Source: Candidatus Omnitrophota bacterium (lineage in GTDB: Bacteria; Omnitrophota; Gorgyraeia; Duberdicusellales; 4484-171). Taken from it: a stretch of DNA of 64,000 nt. Where the stretch lies: the NCBI GenBank assembly GCA_028692655.1, contig JAQUWY010000001.1, positions 24,116 to 88,115 on the forward strand. The letters run 5' to 3'. Below, piece after piece: positions 33,835 to 41,699 of the stretch. Numbering within the stretch: position 1 is the first letter of the stretch; every line of letters begins with the position of its first letter. The notes under the pieces were generated by a model. It was not told the DNA's origin, did not search any database, and worked only from the letters and a program-made list of their open reading frames with translations. Both the position numbers and the translations under genes were made by a program.

Positions 33835-34200
33835 TTGCAGATGGAGAAGATAAATAGCTTTAAGCAGTTAAAAATTTGGCAAAAGGGAATTGAGATTGTC
33901 AAAGACATATATAGCATTACAGAAAAATTTCCCAATAAAGAGACTCGCGGTTTAATTTCGCAGATGCGAAGAGCGTCCGTATCTATACCGTCTAATATAG
34001 CTGAAGGTTTTAAGAGATATCACAATAAAGAATATAAGCAATTTCTGTTTATTGCTTTAGGCTCTTGCGCGGAATTAGAAACTCAGTTTATCATTTCAAA
34101 TGAGCTCAGGTATATAGACAAAATAAATATGGAATTCATTTGTGAAAAATTAGACCATCTTTCAAGAATGGCTACGGTTTTAATTGGTAAACTCAAATAA
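33835..34200 (+). CDS. four-helix-bundle protein (23S rRNA IVS protein family), copy 4
   Basis: FPNKETRGLISQMRRASVSIPSNIAEG...LGSCAELETQ. Likely ATG at 33841. Flanked by an 18-bp perfect inverted repeat ttcgtatatagtatgtcg / cgacatactatatacgaa. Confidence 0.8.
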   Translation: MQMEKINSFKQLKIWQKGIEIVKDIYSITEKFPNKETRGLISQMRRASVSIPSNIAEGFKRYHNKEYKQFLFIALGSCAELETQFIISNELRYIDKINMEFICEKLDHLSRMATVLIGKLK

Positions 34201-37222: not shown

Positions 37223-37462
37223 AAAAGGCCACCAATCTATTATACTACGAAATGTAAGGGGGAGAAGCTGGAAGTTGAAGATTGTGTGGGGAAGGGTTTC
37301 GTACGGAGACCTCGACGCTTACTCAGATATTTCGTTTTCGGTTACTCAACCTAGCTCGCCTTTGGCGAATCGTTTTGAAAATAGAAAATCGACATTAGAC
37401 CGCAATAGAAAATTTTTCCTTCAATTTTCGATTCTCTATTTTCTATTGCTCTGCTTCATAAA

Positions 37463-37494
37463 AAAAGCCCGCATTTCTGCGGGCCTTTTTATGA
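37463..37494. terminator. bidirectional intrinsic terminator
   Basis: aaaaaaagcccgc-atttct-gcgggcttttt. Lies immediately 3' of the minus-strand tRNA-Asn. Confidence 0.6.
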
Positions 37495-37500
37495 AGCCAA

Positions 37501-37805
37501 CTCCCCGGGTAGGGCTCGAACCTACGACCTATTGGTTACGATCTGACTCACATTACTGTGAGAGTCGGACTATCCCTTTACCATGACTGAACAACTTACC
37601 CCTTATTTTATTCGGGATAAAACTTCGCTTCGTTCAGTTTTAGGTAGCGAGTGTCTAGTCTCTGCACCTTCCCTTTTGGGGCTTGGCTCAGGATTGCCCT
37701 TCGCTTGAAGGGTTTCCCTGAATTTACTCGCTGTTTCAATCTCAATTTCTTGAGAAAGCTGCTAACCTTAACAGCCAACCGCTCTACCAATTGAGCTACC
37801 GGGGA
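37501..37805 (-). tRNA. tRNA-Asn (anticodon GUU) interrupted by a group I intron in the anticodon loop
   Basis: Minus-strand exons. 5' exon (37805..37771): TCCCCGG-TA-GCTC-AATTGGTA-GAGC-G-GTTGG-CTGT. 3' exon (37538..37501): TAA-CCAAT-AGGTC-GTAGG-TTCGAGC-CCTAC-CCGGGGA-G. Spliced product is a 73-nt cloverleaf with anticodon loop CUGUUAA. Confidence 0.7.
37539..37770 (-). ncRNA. group I self-splicing intron (cyanobacterial/plastid tRNA-intron-like), 232 nt
   Basis: Intron begins after exon U. Ends in omega-G (...GAGUCAGAUCG). Core AAAUUCAGGGAAACCCUUCAAGCGAAGGGCAAUCCUGAGCCAAGCC plus P7-like GCAGAGACUAGACACUCGC strongly resemble the tRNA-Leu(UAA)-type group I intron core (GGGCAAUCCUGAGCCAA). Confidence 0.7.
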
Positions 37806-38040
37806 ATAAATTATCTAAGAACTTTCTTCCTTGACCAGACTTGAGAAATTTCTCTCTTTGCTTGGCCTCTTTTATATTAGAGAATTCTTCGTAATGCAAT
37901 AAATCAAATGGACGATTCAACCTTGTCCAGCGTGTATTTCCCGAGTTATGTTCTTTTAAGCGAATCCTCACATTCTTTGATGTGTAGCCTACGTATCTTT
38001 TACCATTATGTTTGCTTTTTAATACATAAATAAATGGCAT
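37768..38040 (-). CDS. GIY-YIG nuclease domain protein (YhbQ/UPF0213-like)
   Basis: FIYVLKSKHNGKRYVGYTSKNVRIRLKEHNSG matches the GIY...YIG...R...E...N core. Same strand as the intron-containing tRNA and directly 5' of it. The ORF's last ~38 nt overlap the tRNA 5' exon, so the true C-terminus is uncertain. Confidence 0.55.
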   Translation of the reverse strand: MPFIYVLKSKHNGKRYVGYTSKNVRIRLKEHNSGNTRWTRLNRPFDLLHYEEFSNIKEAKQREKFLKSGQGRKFLDNLFPGSSIGRAVGC

Positions 38041-38323
38041 AAGCGCTGCCTATTTAGAGCTTCCGCCAGAGGCGGATCAGCCTATGGCTGAACCGGGGAA
38101 TTCAATGAAACCGTGATTTTTAAGTATCTAGTAAAAATCGCTTGGTTGAATTAATTCCGACTGCTATCGGGAAAACTTGCTTAAAAGAGCACTAATCTGT
38201 GTAATCTTTTTCGAATCGGTGTAATCGAATATCTCATTAAGACTGCTAATTATAGCGTATTTGATAAAAAGCGTCAAGATTTTGATTTTTGTGGCCTAAA
38301 CCTGAGGAAAAGCTCTAGGAAAA

Positions 38324-38488
38324 CAGGAGAAAATTTACAAGAGAGAGTACAAAAATATCTCCTTGTAAATATTTAAAGAAAGTACTATAATTCCTTTTGT
38401 TACGGTTAAACGGATATCTATGCATTGGCAATATACCCAAATTATTTAAGTAAATCAAAGCGCTAGGAACACCTAGCGCTTTTTTTTG
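38324..38488 (+). repeat. promoter-leader-terminator module, copy A (candidate small RNA or attenuated leader)
   Basis: 126 nt identical to 41537-41662. Contains a perfect sigma70 promoter ttgtaa-17-tataat. Ends in hairpin gcgctagg...cctagcgc plus a T8 tract. Lies upstream of lipoprotein gene 38551. Confidence 0.6.
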
Positions 38489-41530: not shown

Positions 41531-41536
41531 TCCTCA

Positions 41537-41699
41537 CAGGAGAAAATTTACAAGAGAGAGTACAAAAATATCTCCTTGTAAATATTTAAAGAAAGTACTA
41601 TAATTCCTTTTGTTACGGTTAAACGGATATCTATGCATTGGCAATATACCCAAATTATTTAAAGAATTTAAAGCGCTAGGTGCCCCTAGCGCTTTTTTT
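41537..41699 (+). repeat. promoter-leader-terminator module, copy B
   Basis: Same 126-nt sequence as copy A, then a variant terminator hairpin gcgctagg-tgcc-cctagcgc plus a T tract. Lies upstream of lipoprotein operon 41750. Confidence 0.6.

Follow-up and report, generated by a model that had tools for sequence, protein, structure and literature searches.

Where is tRNA-Asn encoded in this Omnitrophota genome, and why does a small nuclease gene run into it? The stretch analysed here—the window throughout, 64,000 nt of GenBank assembly GCA_028692655.1, contig JAQUWY010000001.1—comes from a Candidatus Omnitrophota metagenome-assembled genome (MAG). On its minus strand it carries a tRNA-Asn(GUU) gene that is interrupted within the anticodon and preceded by an open reading frame (ORF) for a GIY-YIG nuclease. 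We conclude with good confidence that this gene is split by a 232-nt, ORF-less group I intron of the family found between tRNA-Asn nucleotides 35 and 36, and that the GIY-YIG cassette upstream is a separate entity. The tRNA-abutting cassette is a more interesting product of the analysis than the intron itself.

A tRNA-Asn gene split within its anticodon

The gene occupies 37805..37501 of the minus strand, with the intron between anticodon nucleotides 35 and 36 (35/36). Joining the exons, 37805..37771 and 37538..37501, gives 73 nt that ARAGORN identifies as tRNA-Asn(gtt) with a perfect cloverleaf, in agreement with the original prediction, which had been made from the letters without database searches. 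The splice junction is ambiguous over 4 nt because UAA (TAA in the DNA) is repeated, and the sole placement in which U precedes the 5' splice site and the intron ends in G is 37770..37539, the 232 nt that had been predicted with these same ends; as no other placement obeys the U/G rule, the insertion lies at 35/36. The anticodon stem covaries across the two exons, with GC in 19, UA in 12 and CG in 7 sequences of a 38-sequence family alignment. Exons and flanking signals are as follows.

37771..37805, minus strand: tRNA-Asn(GUU) 5' exon, nt 1-35, ending ...GGCUGU (ARAGORN on the spliced sequence)
37501..37538, minus strand: tRNA-Asn 3' exon, nt 36-76 (UAACC...CCGGGGAG), CCA not encoded (ARAGORN on the spliced sequence)
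38249..38277, minus strand: promoter-like sigma-70-type site, TTGACG-17 nt-TATAAT, 11/12 consensus matches (a consensus match alone)
37460..37484 (stem 37467-37484), minus strand: terminator-like hairpin GCCCGC-agaaat-GCGGGC followed by T7, 16 nt past the tRNA 3' end

The promoter-like site at 38277..38249 is the likely start of a transcription unit of GIY-YIG gene and tRNA-Asn; because it and the terminator-like hairpin bracket both, the ORF and the tRNA are probably co-transcribed.

Standard annotation does not recover this gene: a default ARAGORN run overlooks it, the intron mode labels it tRNA-Thr(cgt), and the Rfam tRNA model also overlooks it at 37501-37805. A close parallel to the tRNA-Thr(cgt) label is a published miscall in which displacement of the splice boundary by two bases makes tRNA-Asn read as tRNA-Thr(UGU) (Nakagawa et al. 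2026, mSystems, PMC13011429). Neither ARAGORN nor Rfam finds a second tRNA-Asn within the 64-kb window. The Omnitrophota locus is one more tRNA gene missed or mislabelled in this way, and MAGs carrying a 35/36 intron would seem to be without tRNA-Asn, to the detriment of completeness estimates. A locus 99.7% identical over 8.9 kb is present in MAG GCA_028715335.1 (L001; loci used for comparison are cited by L number), and the source attributes its GIY-YIG protein to 'Candidatus Omnitrophica bacterium'.

The intervening sequence is a group I intron

The group I assignment of the original prediction was borne out. RF00028 matches 37780..37546 of the minus strand over its full length (model positions 1-253) with 82.7 bits (gathering score 50, E 1.6e-19), and the sequence contains both of the core strings that had been quoted, GGGCAAUCCUGAGCCAA and GAGACUAG; the 232 nt include no ORF. 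The helices are placed as listed.

37539..37770, minus strand: group I intron, 232 nt, ORF-less, compact and IC3-like (RF00028, family alignment with covariation, fold)
37757..37776, minus strand: P1, GGCUGUUA / UAGCAGCU, 8/8 positions paired
37646..37732, minus strand: catalytic core, helices fully paired, covariation in P3-P6
37732..37726 with 37652..37646, minus strand: P3, 7 bp, AGCGAGU/ACUCGCU
37722..37716 with 37693..37687, minus strand: P4, 7 bp
37712..37707 with 37702..37697, minus strand: P5, 6 bp
37686..37685 with 37668..37667, minus strand: P6, 2 bp, then a short P6a
37660..37656 (5' strand) and 37572..37568 (3' strand), minus strand: P7, GACUA/UAGUC
within 37539..37644, minus strand: P8, long, with an extension pairing 37637..37630 with 37594..37587
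37566..37558 with 37551..37545, minus strand: P9
37539, minus strand: terminal G (omega G)

U37771 and G37762 form the wobble pair at the 5' splice site, and this U·G is kept in all 38 family members aligned. P10 is formed by the loop GGUUA (37767..37763) with the 3' exon UAACC (37538..37534), all five positions being paired, and P2 is 6 bp long. The intron folds at -78.2 kcal/mol (z = -4.8; none of 200 shuffles as stable), far outside chance expectation, and the same P helices are obtained from the sequence alone. An RNAalifold consensus of the 38 non-redundant family sequences contains 58 pairs, 40 of them with compensatory change on both sides; a P6 pair, for instance, flips from GC (21 sequences) to CG (16). 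The sequence and structural marks of a group I intron are found here: an RF00028 score above threshold, P1 with its U·G pair together with omega G and P10, and covarying helices P3-P9.

After transcription the intron would fold into P1-P9 and, by homology to other tRNA-Asn 35/36 introns, self-splicing would be guanosine-dependent; the terminal G would dock in the same site, P10 would align the 3' exon, and ligation would yield the normal 73-nt tRNA. This chemistry is proposed because homologous tRNA-Asn 35/36 introns, from Patescibacteria, self-splice precisely in vitro (PMC13011429).

The tRNA-Asn 35/36 intron family

Introns in tRNA-Asn had been described in the original prediction as rarely reported, a statement that is out of date. 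The types of split bacterial tRNA were raised from 4 to 21 by Williams 2020 (bioRxiv 10.1101/2020.01.27.920355), and 'Asn.4Ug' is among these types according to Nakagawa 2026 (PMC13011429). The latter study reports 28 introns at 35/36 in 4,934 complete genomes, 25 of them classed as IA, with 19 in Patescibacteria, three each in Cyanobacteriota and Nitrospirota, and one each in three other phyla; HNH genes are also reported in tRNA-Asn introns. In its Table S5, Nitrospirota and Bipolaricaulota tRNA-Asn entries and one from Patescibacteria bear the label IA1, and the Nitrospirota and Bipolaricaulota introns of that table share clear blocks with the window intron and align with it throughout.

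A signature pattern drawn from the window and the published introns, GCAGCTT-N(10-30)-TYGAAA-N(7-11)-AATTCAGGGAA, was scanned against one genome per species and recovered at least 119 loci in at least 117 further species genomes from a wide range of phyla. Among the matches listed are Nitrospirota, Acidobacteriota, Omnitrophota, Elusimicrobiota, Bacteroidota, Ignavibacteriota, Clostridia, Desulfobacterota, Aminicenantes, Bipolaricaulota, Margulisiibacteriota and others. Together with the window, 98 of the 120 matches listed resolve as complete split genes, and all 99 are tRNA-Asn(GUU) interrupted at 35/36 with a 3' exon beginning UAA-; the other 22 of the 121 comprise locus ends, P1 extensions, two permuted loci and two probable chance coding hits (L022, L036). 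One match, L102, was considered as tRNA-Asp and rejected, its exons giving CUGU|UAA and hence tRNA-Asn.

Among these listed matches, identity to the window intron is 61-75%, introns without an ORF measure 209-365 nt, and 24 introns of at least 420 nt—about one quarter of those resolved—encode an HNH endonuclease within the P1 loop. At 232 nt the window intron is the second shortest of the 99. Host gene, insertion site, P1-P2-P3 signature and full-length alignment all place it in the 35/36 family; it is an added member of the published class and not a new class, and it is an Omnitrophota member, a phylum that is not listed for 35/36 introns in the published complete-genome survey. Outside Patescibacteria the family is far commoner than that survey implies.

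Compact architecture and the subgroup question

Most family members have one or two additional hairpins (20-49 nt) between the P7 5' strand and the P3 3' strand (P3'). In the window P3' begins 4 nt past P7, as against 10-69 nt (mostly 20-49) in 99 of 100 other resolved matches listed, and no other automatically resolved match listed has P3' within 8 nt of P7. By eye, the compact form is seen in the complete introns of L002, L026, L062, L072, L086, L108 and L120, and also in L012 and L103, whose introns were captured in part, and in the 5' halves of L084 and L090. The loci concerned belong to Omnitrophota, Planctomycetota, WOR-1 and Margulisiibacteriota, and the P8 of the Omnitrophota locus L086 has nearly the same sequence as that of the window. 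The window intron sits in a compact sub-lineage (Omnitrophota, Planctomycetota, WOR-1) that is without the P7-P3' insert; it has no homing gene, and vertical inheritance is probable.

Helices P7.1/P7.2, between P7 and P3', are reportedly the hallmark of subgroup IA, after Michel and Westhof. The 20-49-nt insert of most relatives stands at that site and fits the IA1 label published for them; the window intron has no such extra helices, and shows instead the compact core without P7.1/P7.2 and the core sequence of IC3. Its P6 pair is of the IC3 type (GAGCCAAG...GAAGG), as in 16 of the 38 aligned members, and covaries with GAGCGAAG...GAACG in the remainder.

The original prediction had called the core nearly identical to that of tRNA-Leu introns and the intron of plastid or cyanobacterial type. 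The likeness stands, P3-P6 being 83-95% identical to cyanobacterial tRNA-Leu IC3 introns, but it is not diagnostic, because the tRNA-Asn family shares the same core (78-92%). Region-wise identity does not discriminate between IC3 and tRNA-Asn introns, and semi-global alignment of short segments inflates it; for that reason the subgroup reading relied on architecture. The plastid or cyanobacterial origin was not upheld: the P1-P2-P3 signature and P8 are those of the tRNA-Asn family, with the nearest relatives in Omnitrophota and Planctomycetota, and the host is an Omnitrophota MAG (G+C of the window 38.8%), neither a cyanobacterium nor a plastid. The existence of two architectures, with and without the P7-P3' insert, bears on the kinship of IA-labelled and IC3-type tRNA introns.

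The GIY-YIG gene associates with tRNA 5' ends

The gene that runs into the tRNA from upstream is the following.

37768..38040, minus strand: GIY-YIG ORF, 90 aa, UPF0213/YhbQ-like, single domain (PF01541, E 7.7e-17, residues 2-68)

As had been predicted, this YhbQ-like ORF abuts the 5' exon and overlaps it, by 38 nt: its last 12 codons lie there, and its TAA stop is intron nt 1-3. The nearest solved structures are the UPF0213 proteins 1YWL (E 4.9e-6) and 1ZG2 (E 4.1e-4), and a single GIY-YIG domain of 80-100 aa matching solved UPF0213 proteins is what defines a UPF0213/YhbQ-like protein. The catalytic residues Y5, Y16, G18, R27, H31 and E63 are invariant among the tRNA-adjacent copies. The ratio of nonsynonymous to synonymous substitution rates (dN/dS) is about 0.1-0.2, indicating purifying selection, from three comparisons, dS being saturated for most pairs. 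The protein belongs to an ~80 aa type without a DNA-binding domain. Against TIGR01453, the NCBI family of group I intron endonucleases, it scores 17.8 bits (cutoff 56.05), with only residues 2-33 aligned to the 215-position profile, and there is a partial match to phrog_314, annotated 'homing endonuclease'. Neither the TIGR01453 score and C-terminal DNA-binding region expected of a homing endonuclease nor a specific tie to the intron or its empty site is found.

Two surveys bear on this tie. Centred on the intron, ten GIY-YIG ORFs were found in 9 of the 98 other split tRNA-Asn loci, all on the same strand as the tRNA and 23-478 nt from it, with none elsewhere in those ~8-kb loci (98 loci). Centred on the gene, GIY-YIG relatives at 34-70% identity were collected from 31 metagenome loci, and nearly all solid hits adjoin an uninterrupted tRNA gene: between 22 and 25 of about 26 lie 0-30 nt upstream of the tRNA on the same strand, with Asn-GTT, Ile-TAT, Val-GAC/TAC, Met-CAT, Gln-TTG, Leu-CAA/TAG and Thr-CGT as partners. 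The closest relative, L121, is the only one of these loci with a split tRNA-Asn. Four further protein clusters from other assemblies precede an uninterrupted tRNA-Asn (three) or a tRNA-Gln (one), and RF00028 has no match in their loci. It follows from this gene-centred control that the association is with tRNA 5' ends and not with introns. With about 30 relatives directly upstream of uninterrupted tRNA genes, the homing-endonuclease-like association that the original prediction had suggested finds no support, and the GIY-YIG gene is a separate element, not a partner of the intron.

A Nitrospirae MAG locus (L056:1813-2863, plus strand) has a split tRNA-Asn with GIY-YIG genes on both sides. The upstream gene is intact, uses the tRNA TAG as its stop and is preceded by a 16-nt copy of the tRNA 5' end; the downstream gene is N-terminally truncated. 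The upstream pseudo-copy holds the intron-less anticodon loop sequence GGTGGCTGTTAA.

A cassette of about 330 bp at tRNA 5' ends

In the window the GIY-YIG ORF is the last part of a cassette of ~330 bp (38101..37768, minus strand), in which a duplicated tRNA 5' fragment is followed by two hairpins and then by the ORF. The parts upstream of the ORF are these.

38092..38101, minus strand: left copy of the tRNA 5' end, ATTCCCCGGT, a direct repeat of 37807..37798
38062..38091, minus strand: hairpin pair, TCAGCCATAGGCTGA (38091..38077) and TCCGCCTCTGGCGGA (38076..38062), directly after the left tRNA copy
38041..38061, minus strand: inferred degenerate D-arm-like remnant, AGCTCTAAATAGGCAGCGCTT, between the hairpins and the ATG

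Cassettes are found in the window and in L121-L148, L152-L161 and L056, at tRNA genes of at least seven isotypes with or without introns. A repeat of at least 9 nt of the locus's own tRNA 5' end, 47-148 nt upstream of the ATG, is present in 14 of 23 loci, compared with 3 of 324 mismatched-probe controls. The hairpins have the forms CAGCC-nnn-GGCTG and CCGCC-nnn-GGCGG and occupy the same position in L121, L124, L127, L129 and L131, with either one first, which amounts to inversion of a palindromic module; in L137 the two are inserted separately in the D-loop copy. In many loci the tRNA copy resumes past the hairpin module and continues up to the anticodon loop (positions 1-34 in L134; 1-37, in three blocks, in L122), and the extended copy scores above the 95th percentile of controls in 12 of 23 loci. 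Truncated or decayed copies of the cassette are represented by L056b, L062, L051, L144 and L146-L148.

U8, A9 and G10 are universal in tRNA. The stop codon of the GIY-YIG gene is the tRNA's own T8-A9-G10 (TAG) in 12 of 23 loci. In the window the linker is 1 nt shorter than in L121, so that this TAG is out of frame and the ORF reads on to the TAA at intron nt 1-3; hence its 90 aa in place of the usual 80-81 aa.

Each cassette hairpin occurs once without mismatch in the 64-kb window. The hairpins were considered as a genome-wide repetitive extragenic palindromic (REP) element moved by a nearby Y1 transposase-like gene, and this was rejected on that single occurrence of each.

Between the promoter and the cassette of the window (~38171..38135, minus strand) lies a further degenerate tRNA-Asn-like fragment, TTCCCGATAGCAGTCGG...TTCAACCAAG, and in L056 too an additional tRNA-like 5' fragment is found upstream. 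Such extra fragments suggest repeated insertion and decay at the site.

Permuted tRNA-Asn loci and a 3'-flanking cassette type

In two plus-strand loci from related MAGs, L084:4700-5560 (Margulisiibacteriota) and L090:5500-6500 (WOR-1), the pieces of tRNA-Asn and intron are each present once and in permuted order. The first half consists of the intron 3' part (P8 3' strand, P7', P9, terminal G), the 3' exon and a 5-nt spacer; the second half consists of the 5' exon, the intron 5' part (P1-P7, P3', P8 5' strand) and a GIY-YIG ORF. The RF00028 core (model positions 47-158) is matched downstream of the exons with 47.5 bits in L084 and 44.1 in L090, with weaker matches upstream, and the P8 strands are complementary between the halves in both. 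By reading, the two loci differ by compensatory changes, from G-C to A-U in the acceptor stem and from C-G to U-A in the anticodon stem, and at the exon junction they are similar to the permuted tRNA-like domain of YrlA.

These loci could be natural permuted intron-exon genes giving a circular pre-tRNA; alternatively, they could be rearranged pseudogenes. Ahead of the cassette leader, L084 retains a 22-nt copy of the tRNA 3' end, a trace that suggests a tandem duplication with later deletions. The literature searched contained no natural group I intron in this layout, and, if functional, the two would to our knowledge be the first natural counterpart of the engineered permuted intron-exon systems for circular RNA.

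Relatives of the L084 GIY-YIG protein (five clusters, seven loci) yielded no further permuted loci. In five of the seven the gene lies downstream of an ordinary tRNA-Gln; in the other two a tRNA was not found. They form part of a second GIY-YIG subfamily, 94-98 aa with a 'KGW.R.KK' tail, located ~70-480 nt downstream of tRNA-Gln or split tRNA-Asn.

L162:1786-2285, L165:1778-2285, L168:1820-2291; L018, L038, L058, L082, L114: loci of the second subfamily

A conserved leader, CGACTC...CTCGCTCGG.ACAAGTCC...GAGTCGAG, precedes the gene in the tRNA-Gln loci and in L084. Lying downstream of tRNA-Gln behind this leader, the L084-type relatives define a second, 3'-flanking type of cassette.

Alternative explanations

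From its sequence features the cassette is read as a small selfish element that occupies tRNA genes, with an intact tRNA regenerated on its right side. More fully, and as a tentative proposal to which we give somewhat less than even weight, the GIY-YIG gene would be the cargo of an undescribed mobile cassette of ~330 bp, composed of the duplicated tRNA 5' fragment, two hairpins and an ~80-aa UPF0213-type ORF running into the tRNA. The cassette would target the tRNA 5' half, from D-arm to anticodon loop, regenerating the intact tRNA on the right, leaving a duplicated 5' fragment broken by the two-hairpin module, and taking U8-A9-G10 as its stop codon; it would have a sister type behind tRNA 3' ends, and in L084 and L090 rearrangement around such a cassette may have made a permuted tRNA-Asn that matures via circular RNA. 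No description of a tRNA-abutting GIY-YIG cassette was found in the literature searched, to which access was limited. Should the cassette be mobile, it would rank with the smallest autonomous DNA elements, and a selfish gene would here have a new means of settling in an essential gene while leaving it alive.

Three other accounts compete with parts of these readings. In the first, the GIY-YIG gene is a resident housekeeping nuclease of the YhbQ type that shares an operon with the tRNA and is neither mobile nor selfish. The varying partner tRNA, with seven isotypes among close relatives, speaks against a resident gene, as do the duplicate of its own tRNA's 5' end that precedes each copy and is broken by a conserved hairpin module, the truncated and decayed copies, and the separate insertion of the L137 hairpins. 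The account draws on conserved chromosomal genes within the UPF0213 family, on strong purifying selection, and on a gene-tRNA layout that recurs, for example after rpoD (L153, L157-L160) and after dnaX-recR (L161). We regard it as unlikely, at perhaps one chance in a handful.

The second is collaborative (trans) homing, in which the free-standing GIY-YIG enzyme would cut intron-less tRNA-Asn and repair would copy the nuclease gene together with the neighbouring ORF-less intron, as with mobE and the td intron of phage T4; trans homing by free-standing endonucleases is known in T4 (PMC2790892). Same-strand GIY-YIG genes do lie upstream of split tRNA-Asn in the window, L121, L056 and L062 and downstream of it in L018, L038, L051, L058, L082, L092 and L114, and the intact catalytic residues and the partial phrog_314 match would suit such an enzyme. 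However, relatives sharing 48-67% identity adjoin uninterrupted genes for tRNA-Ile, Val, Met, Gln, Leu, Thr and Asn, the ~80-aa protein has no DNA-binding module and matches TIGR01453 in the GIY motif only (17.8 vs 56 bits), a dedicated HNH endonuclease encoded in P1 already serves the intron family, and the duplicated flank is the tRNA 5' end rather than the intron insertion site. Trans homing is very improbable on this evidence.

Little credence can be given to the third account, a decaying pseudogene that has lost splicing while a continuous tRNA-Asn elsewhere supplies the cell: the 64 kb covered hold no other tRNA-Asn by ARAGORN or Rfam and the GIY-YIG ORF has left its usual stop-codon frame, a sign of some local drift, but helices, U·G pair, P10 and terminal G are all preserved, the cloverleaf is perfect, the locus is conserved at 99.7% in a second assembly, and promoter-like and terminator-like sites are present.

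Several points nevertheless weigh against the preferred reading of a functional split gene with a separate GIY-YIG cassette. In the P7 5' strand, A118 is unpaired with C212 (5/6 paired), and the base of P8 is weak. Splicing of the window sequence itself is argued from its homologues, and co-transcription of ORF and tRNA from a promoter-like and a terminator-like site. An uninterrupted tRNA-Asn gene may lie outside the 64 kb of the genome covered. The placement of the intron as IC3-like is a call on architecture, not on subgroup covariance models. The GIY-YIG gene does have some real link to tRNA-Asn, if not to the intron, since GIY-YIG genes flank 9 of the 98 other split tRNA-Asn loci.

Other features of the window

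Just upstream of the GIY-YIG/tRNA promoter begins a ~3-kb segment flanked by a 164-nt direct repeat (38323-38486 and 41536-41699, 96% identical), each copy of which contains a palindromic terminator-like hairpin. The segment encodes a 182-aa ORF, a 442-aa trypsin-like protease and a 332-aa Y1-transposase-like protein (PF01797), and may be a duplication or an inserted element. Elsewhere, at ~33849-34199 on the plus strand, a '23S rRNA intervening sequence protein' gene (PF05635, four-helix bundle) lies between dnaX and recR, interrupting an otherwise conserved neighbourhood according to the L001 annotation.

Comparison with known systems

The cassette protein has its kin among the UPF0213/YhbQ-like proteins (1YWL, 1ZG2; the 'Slx1 cluster' of Dunin-Horkawicz et al. 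2006, PMC1564403), with which it shares a lone, minimal GIY-YIG domain of 80-100 aa; the account of these proteins in PMC1564403 makes no mention of tRNA adjacency, borrowed stop codons, duplicated tRNA fragments or hairpin modules. With the SegA-G enzymes of phage T4 (SegB lies in the T4 tRNA cluster, PMC2330249) and with I-TevI-type nucleases it shares the GIY-YIG domain and intact catalytic residues, and like the Seg-type enzymes it is encoded by a free-standing gene beside tRNA genes. It differs from them in its ~80 aa, in having no DNA-binding domain, in its score far under the TIGR01453 cutoff and in its kinship to UPF0213, and beside the window gene lie hairpins and a duplicated fragment of the target, an arrangement not generated by homing.

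The intron has the host gene, the insertion site and the rule of U-1 and terminal G in common with the published tRNA-Asn 35/36 introns, as well as the P1-P2-P3 signature (GCAGCUU...UUGAAA...AAUUCAGGGAA) and the P4-P7 and P9 blocks; it differs from them in lacking the P7-P3' insert and in a P6 pair that is C-G instead of G-C. With IC3 introns—those of tRNA-Leu(UAA) at 34/35, tRNA-fMet, tRNA-Arg and Azoarcus tRNA-Ile—it shares the compact P1-P9 organization without P7.1/P7.2 and a P3-P6 core that is 78-95% identical, and the segments GGCAAUCCUGAGCCAAGCC and GUGCAGAGACU are identical between the window and the cyanobacterial tRNA-Leu introns of PMC13011429 Table S5. It differs from the IC3 introns in its tRNA and insertion site, and its P1-P2 and P8 match those of the tRNA-Asn family rather than those of tRNA-Leu.

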